A DNA stretch of 64,000 bases from Burkholderiales bacterium (GCA_038206915.1 JBBRAI010000002.1:5510-69509); one strand, 5' to 3'. Positions 32,207-61,648 are shown, numbered from the stretch's first letter. Notes: generated from the sequence alone by a model not told the origin. Numbers and translations are program-made.

Positions 32207-33523
32207 TCACTGCGACATCGTTCCTGGCAGCCATAGCGCAATCTGCGGAAAAGAAATGACCAAGCCCAGTGCCGCTAATTGCAATATCAGATAGGGCCAG
32301 ATCGAGGCGAAGATGTCGTTGAGCGTGACGCCCTTCGGTACTACGCCTTTGAGATAGAACGCGGCCGGGCCGAACGGCGGCGAGATATAGGAGATCTGCA
32401 TGTTCATGCAGAACAGCACTCCCAGCCAGACGAGATCGAAACCCAGCGCCGAGGCGACCGGCACGAAAATCGGTGCGGTGAGGAGCAGAATACCGATCCA
32501 GTCGATGAAGCAGCCGAGCACGATCCAGATGAGCTGAATGATGATGATTACCCCGATCGGCCCGACGGGCAGCCCCGTCATGGTGTCCTGAATCAGGCGC
32601 GTGCCGCCTGCGAGGGTGTAGACGCCGATCAGCGCGGAAGAGCCGAAGAACAACCAGTAGAGCATCGCCGTGACCTTGGTGGTGTCGACGATGGCGATCT
32701 TCATGTTCGCCCAGGTGAGCCGCCGGTTGACTGCGGCCGCCACTATCGCGCCGATCACTCCCACGCCGGCCGCTTCCGTGGGTGTGGCCCAGCCCAGATA
32801 GAGCGACCCGAGCACACCGAATGCGACAGCCGAGGGGAGTAGCAGGCCGCGCAGCAGCGCAATTTTCTCAGATAGCGGGATCGCCAGTTCTTCTGCGGTT
32901 GCCGGCGGTGCGAGCTCGGGCTGCAGCCGGCAGCGGATGATGATATAGGCGATGTACATTGCGGCAAGCATCAGTCCCGGCACCACCCCCGCAATGTACA
33001 GCTGCCCGATCGAAACGCCGGCGGTCAGCCCCCACATGATCAGCACCACGCTGGGCGGGATCAGGGTGGCGAGGCCGCCGCCGGCGCAGATGCAGCCGAG
33101 CGCGAGATCCTTCTTGTATCCGCGGTTGAGCATGGCCGGCAGCGCTACCACGCCCATGGTGACAATCTCGGCTCCGATCACGCCGACCATCGCCGCCATC
33201 AGCGCGCAGGAGATGATCACCGCCACCGCCAATCCGCCGCGAATGCGCCCGGCCCAGACGTGAACGGTGTGGAATATGGCCTCGGCGATGCCGGCGCGCT
33301 CAAGGATGCAGGCCATGAAAATGAACAGCGGCACCGACACCAGCACGTAATTCCCCATCAGGGTGAAAACGCGGCTGACGACGAGGGTCAATCCGGGTTC
33401 GCCGAACAGGAAATAAGTAAATACTACGGCTATCGCGCCGGTGGCGAAGGCTAGGGGCAGCCCGGCCAAGAGCAGCACCATGAACGCCGCCACGAACAGG
33501 AACGACAGCAGCGTGATGCTCAA
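32207..33523 (-). CDS. TRAP transporter large permease subunit (DctM family)
   Basis: The 438-aa polytopic protein shares a 4-nt overlap with the DctQ-like gene. Confidence 0.9.
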   Translation of the reverse strand: MSITLLSFLFVAAFMVLLLAGLPLAFATGAIAVVFTYFLFGEPGLTLVVSRVFTLMGNYVLVSVPLFIFMACILERAGIAEAIFHTVHVWAGRIRGGLAVAVIISCALMAAMVGVIGAEIVTMGVVALPAMLNRGYKKDLALGCICAGGGLATLIPPSVVLIMWGLTAGVSIGQLYIAGVVPGLMLAAMYIAYIIIRCRLQPELAPPATAEELAIPLSEKIALLRGLLLPSAVAFGVLGSLYLGWATPTEAAGVGVIGAIVAAAVNRRLTWANMKIAIVDTTKVTAMLYWLFFGSSALIGVYTLAGGTRLIQDTMTGLPVGPIGVIIIIQLIWIVLGCFIDWIGILLLTAPIFVPVASALGFDLVWLGVLFCMNMQISYISPPFGPAAFYLKGVVPKGVTLNDIFASIWPYLILQLAALGLVISFPQIALWLPGTMSQ

Positions 33524-34074
33524 GGCTTCTTCTCCACCATCCCGATTTCGCGCAGCAGATTGGCTATCCCCTGCAGTAGCAGCAGCAGCCCGGCGCCAGG
33601 GATGGCGAGTTTTACCGGCCAGATCAGCGGATTCCAGGGCGTGCCGGTAGTCTCACTCTGACCGAAAGATTGCCACGCCATCTGGCCGCCCACCCAGACC
33701 AGAGTGCCGACGTAGAGCACGAAGAAGACGAACGTGAGTAAATCGAGCCGCGCGCGTACCTTGGGGCTGAGGCGCTCGTGGATCAGGTCGATGCGCACAT
33801 GGCGGTGACTCAGATGAGCGTAAGCACCGGCAAGCAGATAGGCCACCGCGGAAACATAGATGACGGATTCGTTGGCCCAGATCGTCGGACGGTTGAACAG
33901 GGTGCGCGCCACCACTTCGTACAGCACCGCCAGTGTTACCAGCAGGATGGTATAGCCACAGACTAGGCCCATCCATTCGTTGACGCCGTCGATGGCGCGG
34001 CAGAAGCCCTCCGCTGCGTGGCGGCGCGGTCGCGTCCGCGCCGGTTCTGCGGAGGGCTCCGGTGCCGGTGTCAC
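33520..34074 (-). CDS. TRAP transporter small permease subunit (DctQ family)
   Basis: The 184-aa protein has 4 predicted TM segments. It lies between the DctP and DctM genes with 4-nt overlaps on both sides. Confidence 0.85.
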   Translation of the reverse strand: MTPAPEPSAEPARTRPRRHAAEGFCRAIDGVNEWMGLVCGYTILLVTLAVLYEVVARTLFNRPTIWANESVIYVSAVAYLLAGAYAHLSHRHVRIDLIHERLSPKVRARLDLLTFVFFVLYVGTLVWVGGQMAWQSFGQSETTGTPWNPLIWPVKLAIPGAGLLLLLQGIANLLREIGMVEKKP

Positions 34075-35102
34075 GCGATCAGGCCGAGGTCGCGCAGCCA
34101 GGCCATCTGCGAGTCATAGGCCTTCTTTGCCAGTGCCGATTTCTTCGACCATTCGGTCCATGTGACATGAGCGAGATCGCGCACCTTGCGCAGTTCTTCC
34201 GGAGTCCAGGTGATTTGCACGATGCCCTTGGGCTTGAGTTCGGCGATAACGCGCACATCGTCCACCGCCACGCGTTCGATCTGGTCCCAGCTCCATTCGC
34301 GCGTCGCGCTCGACAGAATCTGCCGGATGTCCTCGGGCAGCGCCTTCCATGCGGCCATGTTGACGGTGAAGTCCTGGTTTGGCATGGAGTGGGTAAACAT
34401 GGTGGGATATTTGGCGACTTCGTGAAAACCCATGCGCTGGTTCATCGACATCGTGGCCCAGTCGGCCGCGTCGACCACGCCCTTGTCCAGCGCGGAATAC
34501 ACTTCTCCGCCTGGAATTACCACTACCGATCCGCCCATCTTGGTCAGAATCTCGGCGTTGAGACCCTGCGGCGAGCGGATCTTGATGCCCTTGAAGTCGG
34601 CCATATTGTGTATCGGCTTTTTCGATACGATCGACTCCAGGCCCCACCAGGAGACGCCGACGCAGTAGGCGTTGTAACGCGCATAGGCTTCGCGCAGCAG
34701 GTCCAGTCCGCCCTTGTAATGGAACCAGGCATCCGCCTGCCAAGGGTGCTGATAGGCAAAAGCAAGGTCACCGATGACTGCGAACCCGGGGTCTTTGCCG
34801 GTGAAATAGACGGGTGCCGTTGACTGCGCCTGGAGCACGCCGGCCTGCACCGCGTCCAGCGTTTCGAATGCCCCCACGACGGCACCTGAGGCGAAGGGTT
34901 GAATTTCAAGCCGTCCATTGGTCAGTTTACCGACACGGGTACAGAAGTCCTGAAACACCTTGTATGTAAGCTCGGCCGAACTCCACATCGATTGCGCTTT
35001 CCATTTGATCGTCTGCTGCGACTTGACGATCGCGGGAAATCCCAGGCTGGCGGCACCTGCGGCGGCCGCGCCGGTGATAAATCTGCGACGCTGGATACTC
35101 AT
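34071..35102 (-). CDS. TRAP transporter substrate-binding protein (DctP family, Tat-type signal)
   Basis: The N-terminus MSIQRRRFITGAAAAGAASLGFPA is a twin-arginine signal. The remainder is a DctP-like body. Confidence 0.85.
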   Translation of the reverse strand: MSIQRRRFITGAAAAGAASLGFPAIVKSQQTIKWKAQSMWSSAELTYKVFQDFCTRVGKLTNGRLEIQPFASGAVVGAFETLDAVQAGVLQAQSTAPVYFTGKDPGFAVIGDLAFAYQHPWQADAWFHYKGGLDLLREAYARYNAYCVGVSWWGLESIVSKKPIHNMADFKGIKIRSPQGLNAEILTKMGGSVVVIPGGEVYSALDKGVVDAADWATMSMNQRMGFHEVAKYPTMFTHSMPNQDFTVNMAAWKALPEDIRQILSSATREWSWDQIERVAVDDVRVIAELKPKGIVQITWTPEELRKVRDLAHVTWTEWSKKSALAKKAYDSQMAWLRDLGLIA

Positions 35103-35197
35103 GATTTTTTCTCCTCCTTTGTGGTTGCTGCGCTATGGTGTAATTGCTGCATGCGGAACCAGCGGAACCAGCGAGGTTGACAGCATCCCGCTACGCA

Positions 35198-35222
35198 ACT
35201 ACGATGATATATCAGTCGTAGT
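35198..35222. promoter_or_regulatory. operator-like palindrome ACTACGA-TGATATATCA-G-TCGTAGT in the TRAP/PhyH divergent region
   Basis: Read directly. The core TGATATATCA is at 35205-35214. A second half-site, caacATATCAc, is at 35228-35238. Confidence 0.55.
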
Positions 35223-35292: not shown

Positions 35293-36126
35293 ATGTCGAA
35301 GTCGCTGTCCGTCGAAGCCGTGCGGCATTACCAGAGTAATGGCTATCATTTCCCGGTGCCGGTGCTCAGCCGGGAGGAGGCGGCGCATTATCGCCGCTGC
35401 CTGGAGCAGCACGAGGCCAAAACCGGCAAACCGCTGCAGGGCAATTGGCGGCACAAGACGCACCTTATCTTTACCTGGGCGGACGAGCTCGCGCACCATC
35501 CGAAGATTCTCGACGCCGTGGAGGATGTGATCGGCCCGGATATTCTCTGCTGGACCACAAATTTCTTCATTAAGGAAGCGAACAACCCCGGCTTTGTCTC
35601 TTGGCATCAGGACTCGACCTACTGGGGCCTCGATCCGGACGAAGTAATCACTGCATGGGTTGCCTTTACAGACGTGACGCCCGAAAACGGCTACATGCAG
35701 TTCATCCCCGGCAGCCACAAGATCGACCAGTTGCCGCACGTCGATACGTTTCACAAGGACAACCTGCTGTCTCGCGGGCAGGAGATTGCCGTTGAAGTGG
35801 ATAGGTCTAAAGCTGTCGGAATCCCGTTGCGCGCTGGGGAAATGTCGCTGCACCACATCAAGTTGGTGCACGGCTCCGAGGCAAACCGCAGCAACGACAG
35901 GCGCATCGGCCTCGCGATCCGCTACATTCCGACATATGTGCGCCAGACCAAGATTCGCGACTCGGCGATGCTGGTGCGCGGCACCGATAAGTATCGCCAT
36001 TTCGACTACGAACCGCGGCCCCGCGCCGACTTGGACGATGCGGCGCAGGCTGCACATGCCGATGCAGTGGCGCGCCAGGTAAAGGCGCTGTACCAAGGCA
36101 CCAACAAGCAGGAATTTCGCGCCTGA
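35293..36126 (+). CDS. phytanoyl-CoA dioxygenase (PhyH) family Fe(II)/2-oxoglutarate dioxygenase, copy 1
   Basis: The 277-aa ORF follows a GAGGAG RBS. It has the WHQDSTYW (H-x-D) motif, the distal His in LVHGSEAN, and RIGLAIRY. Confidence 0.8.
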   Translation: MSKSLSVEAVRHYQSNGYHFPVPVLSREEAAHYRRCLEQHEAKTGKPLQGNWRHKTHLIFTWADELAHHPKILDAVEDVIGPDILCWTTNFFIKEANNPGFVSWHQDSTYWGLDPDEVITAWVAFTDVTPENGYMQFIPGSHKIDQLPHVDTFHKDNLLSRGQEIAVEVDRSKAVGIPLRAGEMSLHHIKLVHGSEANRSNDRRIGLAIRYIPTYVRQTKIRDSAMLVRGTDKYRHFDYEPRPRADLDDAAQAAHADAVARQVKALYQGTNKQEFRA

Positions 36127-36199: not shown

Positions 36200-37063
36200 G
36201 TGGCTGAAGAACGCAAGAAACTGACGGTGCCCGATCTGAAGGAAGCGAAGAAATCCGGCCGTAAGCTTGCGATGGCCTCGATTCCGGACTACCCATCGGC
36301 AGTCTGGGCCGAGCGCGCCGGGCTGGATATCCTCGGCATCGGCGATAGTCTGGGCATGGTGAGCTATGGCTTCTCCAATACGCTGCCGGTGACGGTGGAC
36401 ATGATGATCCAGCATTGCCAGGCGGTGCGCCGTGGCGCGCCCAACACGTTCAATCTGGTGGCGATGCCGTACGGCAGCTATCCCAACCCGGACGTCGCCG
36501 TGACCAACGCGCTGCGTTTCATGAAGGAGGGCGACGTGGACTGCGTCAAGATCCAGGGCGGGCGCGACAAATTTCCCATCCTGAAGGCGATCGCCGACGC
36601 CGGCGTGCCGTTGATGAGTCACGTCGGCATGTGCCCGCATTTCGTGCACCAGTACGGCGGCTTCAAGCTGCAGGGCAAGACAGCGGATGAGGCGTTGAAA
36701 ATCATTGATGACGCCGTCGCGATCCAGGAAGCCGGCTGCATCGGTTTCGAAATCGAGGCGGTGCCGGCGCCGGTCGCGTGCGCGGTGGACGCAGCGGTAG
36801 ATATCTTCACCTTCGGCATCGGCGCCGGCAGCGCCAGCTGCGGTCAGCTGCTGCTCGCGTTCGATCTTCTGGGCGTGTTCGATCAGTTCAAGCCGAAATT
36901 CACCAAGCGCTATGCCAACATTTCGCAAATCGCCGTGGATGCCCTCAAGCAATACGCCGCCGAAGTGCGCAGCGGGCAGTTTCCGGACGCGGAACACAGC
37001 TACACAATGAAGCCGGAGGAGATCGCACGGTTGGAACAGGTCACCGGCCGGAAGCTGCAATAG
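36200..37063 (+). CDS. 3-methyl-2-oxobutanoate hydroxymethyltransferase (PanB) family protein, copy 1
   Basis: It has a GTG start after a GAAGGAG RBS. PanB motifs are present: IGDSLGMV, RRGAPN, VKIQGG, GHVGMCPH and FEIEAVP. The usual GIGAG..DGQIL reads GIGAGSASCGQLL here. Confidence 0.8.
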   Translation: MAEERKKLTVPDLKEAKKSGRKLAMASIPDYPSAVWAERAGLDILGIGDSLGMVSYGFSNTLPVTVDMMIQHCQAVRRGAPNTFNLVAMPYGSYPNPDVAVTNALRFMKEGDVDCVKIQGGRDKFPILKAIADAGVPLMSHVGMCPHFVHQYGGFKLQGKTADEALKIIDDAVAIQEAGCIGFEIEAVPAPVACAVDAAVDIFTFGIGAGSASCGQLLLAFDLLGVFDQFKPKFTKRYANISQIAVDALKQYAAEVRSGQFPDAEHSYTMKPEEIARLEQVTGRKLQ

Positions 37064-43331: not shown

Positions 43332-44252
43332 CTACATCATCGCGCCAGCGCCACGGGCCGCCGCCACGTCTTCCTTCTGCTGCAGCGAAAATATTGAGGT
43401 ATAACCACCCGACCAGTCCGGCGGGATCAGACACGGGCGCGGGTCGTGGTGGGCGAACGCGGCGCGCTTGCCGCGGATGATCATCTGGTCGTGCTTGGGC
43501 TTGATCGGGTTCACGGTGTAGGGGAAGGCATCGGCCGAGGTCAGCGTATACAGAAGCAGCGGCCGGCCGAGGTCCGAGTCGTTCCTGGGGGAGCCGTGGA
43601 TAGTGCGGCAATTGTGCAGCGTAAGCGACCCGGCTGGGCCGGTGAGGTACACGGCCTTGGATAGCTCGATTCTGGCCAGATCAGTCGCGCTGAGGCAGCC
43701 GACCCAGTTGCCCTGGTCGTCATATTGGGTAAGCAGTGGTTCTATCAGGTGGCTCTTTGGGATCACGCCCAGCGGACCCTGATCCATGCCGCAGTCGTAG
43801 ATATAGGTGCCGACAGTCAGGGGCGAATAGTTGGTGTGCGGCCAGAACGAAATATCGTAGTGCCATTTCACCTCTTCACCGCCCTTTCCCCACTTGAAAT
43901 TCAGTTTGGAGTGGTGGAACTTCACGTCGGGCCCGACCAAGTCGGTCACCGCGTCTGGCATGACGGACTTGGTGCAGTATTCCCAGAATACCGGATGGTG
44001 CTCCGCCGGGTTCGACACGCGCCGCAGGCGCGGCGCATCGGGCCGGTGGTCGGGCTCCAGGTCGAAAATGGCGTCCGACGTAGTGACCTTGCGGCTGCGC
44101 TCAATCATCTCGTCGGTTGCGGCGCGCAGCTTATGGATCCATTCGTCGCCGATGATTTTTTCCAGAAGAATGTAGCCCTCGGAAAAATAGGCCTCGCGCT
44201 GCGCCTGGGTCAGCACGCGCGGGGGAATGGCAAGGATCTGTTCTGGGGTCAT
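43332..44252 (-). CDS. PhyH family Fe(II)/2-oxoglutarate dioxygenase, copy 3
   Basis: The 306-aa ORF follows an AAGGAG RBS. It has WHYDISFWPH (H-x-D) and the distal His in RTIHGSPRN. It is clearly paralogous to copy 2. Confidence 0.8.
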   Translation of the reverse strand: MTPEQILAIPPRVLTQAQREAYFSEGYILLEKIIGDEWIHKLRAATDEMIERSRKVTTSDAIFDLEPDHRPDAPRLRRVSNPAEHHPVFWEYCTKSVMPDAVTDLVGPDVKFHHSKLNFKWGKGGEEVKWHYDISFWPHTNYSPLTVGTYIYDCGMDQGPLGVIPKSHLIEPLLTQYDDQGNWVGCLSATDLARIELSKAVYLTGPAGSLTLHNCRTIHGSPRNDSDLGRPLLLYTLTSADAFPYTVNPIKPKHDQMIIRGKRAAFAHHDPRPCLIPPDWSGGYTSIFSLQQKEDVAAARGAGAMM

Positions 44253-48734: not shown

Positions 48735-48825
48735 GATCTCTCTCCTCCTGTGGATTGAACCAACTTCGTGCTAGTCCGGCGCCGTGCAACGCGTGAAATT
48801 TGACCGTCGGACTGGTGATATATCA

Positions 48826-50994: not shown

Positions 50995-51759
50995 TCAGGC
51001 AGGCTGCCGGGTGAATGGCTTCAGCGCGTGTTTCGCGATCGTCTGCTTGAGTTCGGGCTTGATATGCTTCTCGCTGTAGCCGTTGAATACGTGTCCGAGC
51101 AGGCCGCGGTCCAGATCGCTGGTGCCCATGATCCAGTCGGCGATGGGAAACGTCAGGTTCATGTTGATGTCCATCATGATGCCCTGATTGTGATGCGCCG
51201 TATGGTGGCGGCGGATGGTGTTGACGAACGGCATATTTTGCACGAACCAGTTCTCATGCACGTGGCAGCAGTAGTGGAAGGTTTCGTAAATCAGATACTG
51301 GCCAACCATCGTAACCAGCAGGATGTAGCCCGCATTAGGGTTGATCAGCCAGCCGAGCAGCAGCGCGAATGGCATGCCCAGGCCGATAAACGTGAATAAC
51401 GCGCGCCACGGGAAGAAAATAATGCGGAACTCCCGGGTCGAATCCACGGTCATCTCGCCGTCGGTGAAGTACTGGTGGTGTTGGCGGGTGTGGCGGTCGT
51501 AGATGGCGCGCAGCGCCCACACGTCGCGCAGCCGGTGCATGACGTATTTGTGTATCCACCATTCGAAAATATTCGAGAAACAGAATACCGGCACCACCAG
51601 CAGCCATTCCCATCCTGAATCGTGCAGGCGCGATATGCACCAGGCGATCGTCGCGATGCCGGTGGAGTACATCACGCCGATGTGAACCAAACCGTTGTAA
51701 AGAGGATGGATCTGTGCAGTGTATTCTTCGCGGAACTTGCGCTGTCGCTCTGTCATCAT
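50995..51759 (-). CDS. fatty acid hydroxylase / sterol desaturase superfamily membrane di-iron oxygenase
   Basis: The 254-aa protein has TM segments and three His boxes: HKYVMH, HTRQHH and HHTAHH. A GGAGGA RBS precedes it. Confidence 0.8.
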   Translation of the reverse strand: MMTERQRKFREEYTAQIHPLYNGLVHIGVMYSTGIATIAWCISRLHDSGWEWLLVVPVFCFSNIFEWWIHKYVMHRLRDVWALRAIYDRHTRQHHQYFTDGEMTVDSTREFRIIFFPWRALFTFIGLGMPFALLLGWLINPNAGYILLVTMVGQYLIYETFHYCCHVHENWFVQNMPFVNTIRRHHTAHHNQGIMMDINMNLTFPIADWIMGTSDLDRGLLGHVFNGYSEKHIKPELKQTIAKHALKPFTRQPA

Positions 51760-51801: not shown

Positions 51802-51867
51802 CGTGATATATCACGCGTATATCTTATGCTACGCGCGCCGCCGGCTTTTATCAAGCTGCGCGTTCCG
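51802..51867 (-). promoter_or_regulatory. sigma70-like promoter plus downstream CGTGATATATCACG operator for the hydroxylase gene
   Basis: On the minus strand TTGATA (51849-51854) is followed by 17 nt, then TAGCAT (51826-51831), then a perfect 14-bp palindrome (51802-51815). The geometry matches that at 48826-48883. Confidence 0.55.
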
Positions 51868-52053: not shown

Positions 52054-52749
52054 TCAGAAGTCGATGGTCACCGTCCCCCGCGTAAACTTGGCCACGGCGT
52101 CCAGCAGTTTGTCCATCGCTTTGGCCGCGGCGGACTCGTTGCCCGAGCCGATACTACGCGAGAGGTTGGCATGCAGCTTGGCGGTGAGTGGCAAGTCCGC
52201 CGCCTGCTTGTAATGAATGTACCAGAAGCGCCGCGACAGAGAGTGCATCAGGCCCATAGCGCCGGAGGCAAATTCGTTGCGCGCCGCGATCACCGAAAGT
52301 TCATTGAATTCGCGATCCACCCGCATGAACGTAACATCGTTGTTGGTCTTGGCGCTCGCTTCGAATTGGCGCGCGAGCGCGAGGAAGCGTTCGCGCTCCT
52401 CGGGCGTCGCGCGCCGTGCCGCGCTCCTCGCCACCAGGCGCTCTACTTCGCGCCGCACCTCAAGCAGCCTCAACTGGCTCTTCACATTGATCTCGGAAAC
52501 GATGATTCCCCGCCGCGGCAGTATATTGACCAGGCGCTCGCGTGCGAGACGTTGCAGTGCCTCGCGTATGGGCGTGCGCCCGATCCCGAGACGTTGCGAC
52601 AGGGCGGTCTCGGACACGGTGCTGCCCGGTGGCAACTTCAGCGTGACGATCATTTCCTCAAGAATGCCGTAGGCGCGTTCGGTCAGCGAAATATCCGCTT
52701 CGGATGCGACTTTTTCCGGCTTTCTGACGGTGGTTTTTTGTGGTTTCAC
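52054..52749 (-). CDS. GntR family transcriptional regulator (FadR/FCD subfamily)
   Basis: The N-terminal winged HTH reads ETALSQRLGIGRTPIREALQRLARERLV, and the C-terminal domain is all-helical. The GTG start overlaps the PanB-like stop (GTGA). Confidence 0.85.
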   Translation of the reverse strand: MKPQKTTVRKPEKVASEADISLTERAYGILEEMIVTLKLPPGSTVSETALSQRLGIGRTPIREALQRLARERLVNILPRRGIIVSEINVKSQLRLLEVRREVERLVARSAARRATPEERERFLALARQFEASAKTNNDVTFMRVDREFNELSVIAARNEFASGAMGLMHSLSRRFWYIHYKQAADLPLTAKLHANLSRSIGSGNESAAAKAMDKLLDAVAKFTRGTVTIDF

Positions 52750-53627
52750 TGGTGCTTGCGTTTTTCGACGAGGTTGAGAAATTTTTCGTACTCCTTCTCG
52801 TCCACGCCATAGCTGTGATCGTCGTCCGGGAAGGTGCCGGCTTTTACGTCGGCGATGTAGGCCTTGATGCCGTTCACCGCGACCTCGGTCAGATTGGCAT
52901 AGCGCTTGGTGAACTTCGGCTTGAAGTCGGTGAATACGCCGAGCAGATCATGGCAAAGCAGGATCTGGCCATCGGTACCGGCGCCAGCGCCTATGCCTAT
53001 GGTCGGGATTTCGAGCTGCTTCGATATCACCGCGGCGATCTTCGCCGGCACCGCTTCAAATTCGAGCATGAAGCAGCCCGCATCCTGAATCGCGAGCGCG
53101 TCGCCGAGTATCTTCATCGCCGCTTCCGCGCTGCGTCCCTGGATGCGGAAGCCGCCGAACATAGCGATGGTGTGCGGCGTGAGGCCGATGTGCGAGGCGG
53201 TCGGAATACCGGCATCTACCAGCGCTTTGAGTATGTGCGCCTGAGATTTTCCGCCCTGCGGCTTTACCGCGTCGCTGCCGGCATCCTGCATGAAGCGCGT
53301 TGCGTTGAGCAGGGCGCGATCGATCGTGTTATAGCTCTGGTAGGGCATGCAGCCCAGTACGAAGGTGGCGGGCGCGCCACGGCGGATGGCCGCCGCGTGC
53401 ATCACCATCATGTCCATGGTGGCGGGAATCGTGCTCGAATGTCCATGCGCGATCATCGCCAGGCTGTCCCCGACCACGGCAACGTCGACGCCCGCGGTTT
53501 CGGCCCATTTGGCCGCCGTATAATCGGGCACCGACATGTAGACCATCTTCTCACCGCTGTTCTTGGATTCGCGTATTTCCTGGATGGTCCGCTTTTTGCG
53601 TTCCGTGCCTGGGCTTGCCTGGGCCAA
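52746..53627 (-). CDS. 3-methyl-2-oxobutanoate hydroxymethyltransferase (PanB) family protein, copy 2
   Basis: ORF 52746..53717 trimmed to the TTG at 53627, which has an AAGGAG RBS 6 nt upstream. PanB motifs are present: VGDSLAM, RRGAP, VKPQGG, SHIGLTPH, LEFEAVP and GIGAGAGTDGQILL. Confidence 0.8.
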   Translation of the reverse strand: MAQASPGTERKKRTIQEIRESKNSGEKMVYMSVPDYTAAKWAETAGVDVAVVGDSLAMIAHGHSSTIPATMDMMVMHAAAIRRGAPATFVLGCMPYQSYNTIDRALLNATRFMQDAGSDAVKPQGGKSQAHILKALVDAGIPTASHIGLTPHTIAMFGGFRIQGRSAEAAMKILGDALAIQDAGCFMLEFEAVPAKIAAVISKQLEIPTIGIGAGAGTDGQILLCHDLLGVFTDFKPKFTKRYANLTEVAVNGIKAYIADVKAGTFPDDDHSYGVDEKEYEKFLNLVEKRKHQ

Positions 53628-53647
53628 ATTGGACTCCTTGTCGTGTG

Positions 53648-53672
53648 ACTGATATGCGTGCAGTATATCAGT
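53648..53672. promoter_or_regulatory. inverted repeat ACTGATAT-N9-ATATCAGT in the PanB2/Fe-S-protein divergent region
   Basis: Read directly. The arms are 8 bp and perfect. The repeat lies 21 nt upstream of the PanB2 start. Confidence 0.55.
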
Positions 53673-53762
53673 TGTGTTTTCAGCAGTGTAATGCGCACCG
53701 GGCGACAAGTGTGCCACCTTACAGGTGTCCTGGCGCGTGCCGCTGCAGGCGCGGAGCAGGCA

Positions 53763-54480: not shown

Positions 54481-54527
54481 GGTTTGATTCAGATCAAATC
54501 GGCCGCTCATATATTACTGATATATTA
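54481..54527 (+). promoter_or_regulatory. 47-nt conserved regulatory block upstream of the corrinoid-protein operon
   Basis: It reads ggTTTGATTCAGATCAAAtcggccgCTCATATATTACTGATATatta. The palindrome is TTTGAT-N4-ATCAAA, followed by an ACTGATAT half-site. It ends 50 nt before the ATG at 54577. Confidence 0.6.
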
Positions 54528-61321: not shown

Positions 61322-61648
61322 CTAGACGATAGCGTCTACCCCGCGTGCGGCGCGGATGACGCGCATGATTTCGACGCAGTTGCCGCGGGTGCGGTAGAAG
61401 ATCACGTAGCGCTGGAACAGCAGGCTGCGGATGCCCTCCTGCAGCTCCTGGCGCGGCGGCCCCATCTCCGGATGCAGCGTCAGCAGCTGGCAAACCTGTT
61501 CGAATTGGTTGACGAAGCTCAGTGCCGCCGCAAGATGCTCCGCATTGGTCGTGCCGAAGCGGACGCTGGGCATTGCGATCGTCTCCCAAATGCCGTTGAG
61601 GTCGGCGCAAGCCTGAAACGTAAACTGCATCCGGCTGGAAACTGTCAT
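61322..61648 (-). CDS. type II toxin-antitoxin system RelE/ParE family toxin (no intact cognate antitoxin seen)
   Basis: The 108-aa protein reads ...FTFQACADLNGIWETI...HPEMGPPRQELQEGIRSLLFQRYVIFYRTRGNCVEIMRVIRAARGVD, a ParE-like pattern. MQFTF is an alternative start. Confidence 0.7.
   Translation of the reverse strand: MTVSSRMQFTFQACADLNGIWETIAMPSVRFGTTNAEHLAAALSFVNQFEQVCQLLTLHPEMGPPRQELQEGIRSLLFQRYVIFYRTRGNCVEIMRVIRAARGVDAIV

Follow-up and report, generated by a model that had tools for sequence, protein, structure and literature searches.

We report that a gene in a 64,000-nucleotide stretch of a Burkholderiales bacterium genome (GCA_038206915.1, JBBRAI010000002.1:5510-69509; hereafter the window) encodes a diverged member of the PanB family, PanB1 (36200-37063, plus strand, 287 amino acids), belonging to a rare and accessory clade in which near-invariant active-site residues of canonical PanB are replaced. 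At the positions of E. coli Asp84, Glu114 and Gln142 (D-E-Q), this clade carries Ala, Ser or Cys, followed by Gln and His (A/S/C-Q-H). PanB1 is not the cell's pantothenate enzyme; the housekeeping copy lies on another contig, C53. Together with the gene directly upstream, which encodes a PhyH-family dioxygenase (PhyH_A), PanB1 is best explained as a two-gene catabolic unit. The function we favor, at somewhat less than even probability and from sequence and gene context, is PanB chemistry run in reverse, by which PanB1 would transfer to tetrahydrofolate (THF) a hydroxymethyl carbon that the oxygenase has produced.

The PanB1 open reading frame begins with a GTG codon 6 nucleotides downstream of a GAAGGAG ribosome-binding site, and its GC content at third codon positions is 0.81, compared with 0.63 for the 64-kb window. 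The protein matches Pfam family PF02548 at 292 bits, with positions 1-258 of the 259-position profile covered, and scores above the cut-offs of both the NCBIfam panB equivalog model TIGR00222 (256 bits, cut-off 207.55) and NF001452 (282.6 bits, cut-off 272). PF02548 was the sole Pfam family returned, which rules out membership in the HpcH/HpaI aldolase family; any resemblance to the HpcH/RhmA class II aldolases would be one of mechanism at most, not of ancestry. An AlphaFold2 model of PanB1 (predicted local distance difference test score 88.9) gave template modeling scores of 0.81/0.93 to M. tuberculosis PanB (1OY0). In a Foldseek search with this model the best matches were all PanB structures, followed by PrpB, dimethylmalate lyase and PPH, and PanB1 is accordingly predicted to fold as a (beta/alpha)8 barrel of the phosphoenolpyruvate mutase/isocitrate lyase superfamily. 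PanB1 is 36-38% identical to the solved PanBs 1M3U, 1OY0 and 3VAV/3EZ4, with which it shares family and (beta/alpha)8 fold, and it keeps the GIGAG..GQ.L motif of the E. coli, M. tuberculosis and Burkholderia enzymes (EC 2.1.2.11). Unlike these enzymes, it is encoded by an accessory gene and falls in a separate long-branch clade. Its near relatives in public databases are many and almost all metagenomic, and those that carry a name are all labeled plain PanB (3-methyl-2-oxobutanoate hydroxymethyltransferase).

Residue usage was surveyed in 150 representatives of 50%-identity clusters, gathered by an exhaustive phmmer search, together with four reference sequences. We also built a maximum-likelihood tree of 130 rows, comprising orthologs from 80 species-level genomes, the canonical PanBs of the relatives, cluster representatives and E. 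coli PanB. Where E. coli PanB reads ADLPF, with Asp84 in second place, PanB1 reads VAMPY and has Ala88 (codon 36461-36463, plus strand), and PanB2, a sister paralog in the window, has Cys. At this position the tree has Asp in each of its 68 regular canonical rows and Ala, Ser or Cys in all 59 rows of the clade. Glu114 of the VKIEGG motif, which is Glu in 138 of 154 representatives, aligns with Gln119 of PanB1 (36554-36556, plus strand) and is Gln in 59/59 clade members. Gln142 of the TPQS motif, Gln in canonical PanBs, aligns with His147 (36638-36640, plus strand) and is His throughout the clade (59/59). The complete A/S/C-Q-H combination is found in 59 of the 59 clade rows, and D-E-Q in 68 of the 71 rows outside it.

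Other parts of the active site are preserved. D45, S46, K112, H136 and E181 are retained as D49, S50, K117, H141 and E186 in PanB1, and are likewise kept in 57 of the 59 clade rows. T23S, Y25P, F87Y and V214L also run through the clade, as does a tail of about 20 residues at the C terminus; the PanB1-type sequences add L139M, T140C, P198F and I200F. In the AlphaFold model, Ala88, Gln119 and His147 are placed at or just past the C-terminal ends of strands 3, 4 and 5, the catalytic face of the barrel. D45, D84 and E114 are described from the E. coli and M. tuberculosis structures as the Mg2+ site of PanB, and PanB1 may have lost this site.

In PanB, a divalent metal catalyzes enolization (PMC7770189), and the enolate leaving group is said to be stabilized as a Mg2+ complex (PMC4814558). 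Loss of the acidic pair is consistent with a leaving group that depends less on Lewis-acid assistance, or with a different metal. E. coli PanB (ketopantoate hydroxymethyltransferase, KPHMT) also acts as a cofactor-independent aldolase using free formaldehyde, and enlarging V214, I202 or I212 broadens its substrate scope (PMC7610986).

The tree separates PanB1-type sequences (44 rows) from PanB2-type sequences (15 rows), with Shimodaira-Hasegawa approximate likelihood-ratio support of 99 and 100, respectively, and joins the two in one 59-row clade (support 99). The stem of this clade measures 0.60 substitutions per site, against a median of 0.054 for inner branches. The 3.96-Mb genome assembly contains three PanB-family genes, PanB1, PanB2 and the C53 copy, the last of which has the highest profile score (364 bits) and is of D-E-Q type. 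Among 22 genus relatives, 20 have a canonical PanB of about 365 bits and about 6 have the PanB1/PanB2 pair, always on one contig and 15-20 kb apart; no PanB1-clade gene was present in 299 other genomes evenly sampled from the class. The taxa that carry the clade are uncultured freshwater and soil Burkholderiales, some Alphaproteobacteria and at least one cultured methylotroph. As a first-pass annotation of this DNA had noted, panC and panD are not beside PanB1: panC is on contig C8, and panD was not found in the genome.

The same first-pass annotation had described PanB1 as a candidate neofunctionalized PanB, active on something other than pantoate synthesis, in a C1 (one-carbon)-related cluster, arguing from a Cys that replaces a conserved Asp in the GIGAG..GQ.L motif. 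Its general idea survives on other evidence, namely the canonical panB elsewhere in the genome, a long-branch clade with D84, E114 and Q142 replaced, a patchy distribution and the pairing with oxygenase, importer and GntR genes described below; the argument from Cys does not. The alignment does bear out DGQIL at this site in both E. coli PanB and PanB2, where PanB1 has Cys214 (codon 36839-36841, plus strand) in place of E. coli D209. The position is nevertheless variable in PanBs rather than conserved, with D 66, S 60, A 6, G 5, H 5, C 4 and T 2 among about 150 representatives. Bona fide PanBs share in this variation: the solved Burkholderia PanBs 3vav and 3ez4 read AECSGQVL and the canonical PanB on C53 reads RDCSGQVL, each with Ser for the E. 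coli Asp. Cys214 was thus ruled out as a family-level diagnostic, and Cys at this position is instead a subclade trait, found in 35 of the 44 PanB1-type rows, with Asp in all 15 PanB2-type rows. The strings that had been quoted for PanB1 (GDSLGM, RRGAP, VKIQGG, EAVP and GIGAGSASCGQLLLAFDLLG) all occur in it, but VKIQGG, which had been listed as a PanB hallmark, is not one; because the canonical motif is VK(I/L)EGG, it is a true departure.

PhyH_A (35293-36126, plus strand), whose position 5' of PanB1 had also been recorded correctly, ends 73 nucleotides before it and is the first gene of a two-gene operon with PanB1. It encodes an Fe(II)/2-oxoglutarate dioxygenase with a hydroxylase-type HxD motif (WHQD); a halogenase was ruled out, as HxD is present and not HxA/G. 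The solved protein nearest to PhyH_A is 6ZYK/6ZYL (1.3e-52), which is titled only 'monooxygenase / uncharacterized protein' and for which our literature search found no publication. A protein atlas search gave 'phytanoyl-CoA dioxygenase family' only, and the only NCBIfam matches, to models of chlorinating enzymes and ectoine hydroxylase, fell below threshold.

Synteny was assessed in 80 related species-level loci, counting neighbors within 7 kb of PanB1. PhyH_A is directly 5' of PanB1 in 64 of these loci and ends a median of 28 nucleotides before the PanB1 start. Genes of a TRAP (tripartite ATP-independent periplasmic) importer are frequent neighbors (DctQ in 34 loci, DctP in 39 and DctM in 44), as are genes for a GntR/FCD regulator (28), a further PhyH dioxygenase, PhyH_C (29), and an FA_hydroxylase-family oxygenase (24). 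By comparison, a control set of 30 canonical panB loci included none with a PhyH, TRAP, GntR or FA-hydroxylase neighbor within 1.5 kb. The PanB1 gene itself does not adjoin pan or folK genes.

In the window, the TRAP importer genes (32207-35102, minus strand) diverge from the PhyH_A-PanB1 operon, in the form of DctP (34071-35102), DctQ (33520-34074) and DctM (32207-33523). The nearest solved match of DctP is the lactate-binding protein 2zzv of T. thermophilus (1.8e-73), and ketoacid binders match too, which suggests that the importer carries a small monocarboxylate of the 2-hydroxy or 2-oxo kind. PhyH_C, the third PhyH dioxygenase of the window (43332-44252, minus strand), is in many of its 29 related loci directly downstream of PanB1 and convergent with it. 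Near PhyH_C or the TRAP genes, about 20 related loci (for example L067:1404-3179, L015:13809-15158 and L025:3009-4439) also have a PF12831 FAD-dependent oxidoreductase, which is not part of the PanB1 module of the window. Alphaproteobacterial orthologs of PanB1 (64% identical) have a Rieske/VanA_C oxygenase directly 3' (L075:8854-9939 and L078:8858-9994). The genes 5' in L078 encode an acyl-CoA dehydrogenase, a CoA-transferase, two sugar-acid-type dehydratases (IlvD/EDD and altronate-type) and an aldehyde dehydrogenase.

The only promoter-like site upstream of PhyH_A, TTGACA-17-TACGAT (35177-35205, plus strand), is overlapped at its -10 hexamer by a palindrome, TGATATATCA (35205-35214). Besides this copy, in the promoter region of the PhyH_A-PanB1 and TRAP genes, exact copies in the window are found at 48816-48825, ahead of a Liv-type importer, and at 51804-51813, ahead of FA hydroxylase and B12-fusion genes, and a copy with one mismatch (54518-54527) is upstream of a corrinoid operon; about 0.4 matches with at most one mismatch would be expected by chance. 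Across about 1 Mb of related loci, exact copies occur only 86 nucleotides 5' of PhyH_A or just 5' of the FA hydroxylase gene. The palindrome is restricted to the closest loci and absent from distant relatives, so that it can speak for co-regulation only within this lineage. The GntR regulator encoded at 52054-52749 probably has this palindrome as its operator.

Downstream of PanB2 lies an operon for a corrinoid protein, a URO-D-type methyltransferase, a pterin-binding methyltransferase, a RACo activator, MTHFR (methylenetetrahydrofolate reductase) and a DUF1638 protein. Given the shared palindrome and this corrinoid/MTHFR operon, PanB1 appears to be part of a single regulon whose focus is the removal of methyl groups and the folate C1 pool. 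A ParE-family toxin gene (61322-61648, minus strand) follows immediately after the demethylase operon and may show where a mobile or accessory island ends.

PanB2 (52746-53717, minus strand) is 51% identical to PanB1 and of Cys-Gln-His type. Its start is uncertain and probably lies downstream of 53717, because homologs lack about 36 N-terminal residues of the longest open reading frame. The gene overlaps that of the GntR/FCD regulator (52054-52749, minus strand) by 4 nucleotides, and its usual partner is the FA_hydroxylase-family membrane oxygenase (50995-51759, minus strand), which has the 51804-51813 palindrome upstream. The two paralogs have in common the Gln and His replacements, the C-terminal tail and the pairing with an oxygenase and a GntR regulator. 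They differ in that PanB2 has Cys rather than Ala or Ser at the D84 position and Asp at the D209 position, and is paired with an oxygenase of the FA_hydroxylase/sterol-desaturase family, whereas PanB1 is paired with PhyH. In L043:1-3212, L044:318-3714 and L080:2881-6149, the genes run in the order PanB2-FA hydroxylase-PhyH_A-PanB1 on one strand with spacers of roughly 0-75 nucleotides. This compact arrangement suggests that both pairs of oxygenase and PanB-like protein serve a single pathway, perhaps by processing two methyl groups one after the other.

A PanB2 ortholog of Cys-Gln-His type (WP_012631254.1; L116:4336-9864) is encoded on plasmid pMNOD02 of Methylobacterium nodulans ORS 2060. It is accompanied by genes for a GntR regulator, an MFS transporter and a member of the sterol-desaturase family, which shares 54% identity with the FA hydroxylase of the window. 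As a cultured methylotroph, M. nodulans offers a usable experimental system for the A/S/C-Q-H clade.

The PanB reaction is in principle reversible, and in reverse it hands a hydroxymethyl carbon to THF. In the pathway we favor, the adjacent TRAP system would take up a small carboxylate of the 2-hydroxy or 2-oxo type, or such a compound in methylated form, and PhyH_A would hydroxylate a methyl group or C-H bond of the imported compound. PanB1 would then detach the resulting hydroxymethyl carbon, at the oxidation level of formaldehyde, and pass it to THF to give 5,10-methylene-THF, which would join a folate C1 pool also fed by the neighboring B12 demethylases and MTHFR. The direction of the reaction, the use of folate and the identity of the substrate are all predictions here, and the site that carries the carbon may be of two kinds. 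If the carbon is on C3 of a 2-oxoacid, as in a 4-hydroxy-2-oxoacid, the reaction would be a retro-aldol cleavage, which the retained D49, S50, K117, H141 and E186 and the ketoacid-type importer favor. If it is on O or N, PanB1 would capture a hemiacetal or hemiaminal, which the two lost carboxylates and the demethylase-type partners favor. The conservation of two paralogs, each with an oxygenase of its own, argues that an organic substrate is recognized and that PanB1 does not merely trap free formaldehyde.

Several observations weigh against this pathway. PanB1 scores above the cut-off of the TIGR00222 panB equivalog model, and the residues that putatively hold the 2-oxoacid (D45, S46, K112, H136 and E181) are all kept, so that ordinary KPHMT activity with an altered metal site is possible. 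The role of D84 and E114 as Mg ligands is putative, and the use of THF by PanB1 is an assumption. In addition, close orthologs (76-88% identical) in L016, L020, L025, L027, L032 and L064 have no PhyH neighbor. The one in L016 (83% identical) follows a GntR gene, DctPQM genes and an MR_MLE (enolase-superfamily) dehydratase gene, an arrangement that fits a plain aldolase equally well.

A plain aldolase is indeed the alternative that fares best, and we regard it as unlikely. PanB1 would then be a THF-independent retro-aldolase that splits a 4-hydroxy-2-oxoacid into a 2-oxoacid and a free aldehyde, in the manner of HpcH/RhmA enzymes on a PanB scaffold; a hydroxylation or an acid-sugar dehydratase would supply the 4-hydroxy-2-oxoacid. 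That E. coli KPHMT is already a cofactor-independent aldolase (PMC7610986) speaks for this, as do the lactate/ketoacid-binding type of DctP, the five retained residues, the dehydratase next to the L016 ortholog and the IlvD/EDD and altronate-type dehydratases 5' in L078. Class II aldolases, however, require a divalent metal, and PanB1 has lost two of the three acidic residues; in L016 a cassette seems to have come between PhyH_A and PanB1, with a gap of 147 nucleotides, and the PanB1 module is co-regulated with a folate-centered demethylation island.

It is quite improbable that PanB1 is an ordinary PanB isozyme providing extra pantoate and CoA while the island is expressed. Such an isozyme would explain the scores above the TIGR00222 and NF001452 cut-offs, the PanB fold, the five conserved catalytic-face residues and the uniform PanB label in databases. 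It is hard to square with the replacement of all three near-invariant residues D84, E114 and Q142, with the long stem branch of the clade and with a genome that already has a canonical copy. PanB1 is, moreover, never found beside pan genes and is tied instead to oxygenases, importers and GntR regulators. A Rhizobium etli paralog without a metal site, though of a different lineage, failed to complement a panB mutant (PMC3082293).

An equally poor prospect is forward C1 assimilation, in which PanB1 would join 5,10-methylene-THF from the demethylases and MTHFR of the island to a small 2-oxoacid such as pyruvate, yielding biomass. The island does encode a methylcorrinoid:THF methyltransferase and MTHFR, its operons are linked by the shared operator, and V214L in both paralogs, with the bulkier P198F, I200F and L139M in PanB1, could narrow the pocket for a smaller nucleophile. 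Many loci, however, consist only of GntR, TRAP, PhyH_A and PanB1 without corrinoid genes, and this scheme leaves no role for the tightly coupled dioxygenase. That PanB1 is an accessory subunit of the oxygenase, either without catalytic activity or devoted solely to binding folate, is most improbable: two acidic active-site residues are lost, but E186, H141, K117, D49 and S50 are strongly conserved among members 64-95% identical to PanB1 and are joined by a new invariant His147, which argues that the active site is under selection.

Transfer of an oxygenase-made hydroxymethyl carbon to THF may extend beyond PanB1. A possible, if rather doubtful, generalization is that the whole A/S/C-Q-H clade is a new PanB-derived enzyme class that has given up the Mg2+ site of the superfamily. 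Its members would be the C1-accepting, folate-dependent component of aerobic demethylases made up of two components, with PhyH, FA-hydroxylase or Rieske/VanA-like partners and no free formaldehyde. We found no description of this clade in the literature on PanB paralogs, PanB-like proteins or PhyH with PanB. If the proposal is true, it would add a new route by which methyl carbon is conserved in O2-dependent demethylation and a new type of partner in aerobic demethylation, one that ties oxygenase chemistry to the folate C1 pool, and it would assist the search for the substrates on which a large B12/oxygenase catabolic island acts. PanB is handled as a family with one function, and the name 3-methyl-2-oxobutanoate hydroxymethyltransferase is probably wrong for this clade. 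For the engineering of KPHMT as a formaldehyde aldolase, the clade is also relevant as a naturally occurring PanB scaffold whose metal site is altered.

PanB paralogs beside oxygenases have a precedent in R. etli, where the paralog RHE_PE00443 had no metal-binding domain in a CD-search and neither supported growth of a panB mutant nor complemented it (PMC3082293). RHE_PE00443 is the last gene of an operon on plasmid p42e of R. etli CFN42 (L117:28818-32321), together with a fatty-acid-desaturase-like oxygenase, a MocE-family 2Fe-2S ferredoxin and an FAD-dependent oxidoreductase. The operon resembles the MocDEF system, which has been proposed to demethylate rhizopine. Like PanB1, RHE_PE00443 is a PanB paralog next to an oxygenase system in a genome with a canonical panB. 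Unlike PanB1, it represents a much more degenerate lineage, with 27% identity to E. coli PanB, neither D45 nor K112 and a deletion in a loop, and these features of the alignment rule out that PanB1 belongs to the same lineage. Since RHE_PE00443 is not in the PanB1 clade, its failure to complement is not simply transferable, and the case shows only that PanB paralogs recur beside oxygenases, not what PanB1 does. The common denominator, R. etli included, is an O2-dependent hydroxylase, drawn from four families, beside a PanB-like protein in importer-linked, repressor-controlled units.

Folate-dependent demethylases of the GcvT fold include LigM, DmdA and the folate domains of sarcosine and dimethylglycine oxidases. 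The role proposed for PanB1 would resemble theirs in that C1 units derived from methyl groups are kept on THF, without the release of toxic formaldehyde. By contrast, PanB1 has an unrelated fold, and its C1 unit would first be oxidized by a separate O2-dependent hydroxylase, so that the likeness is one of logic and we claim no homology.

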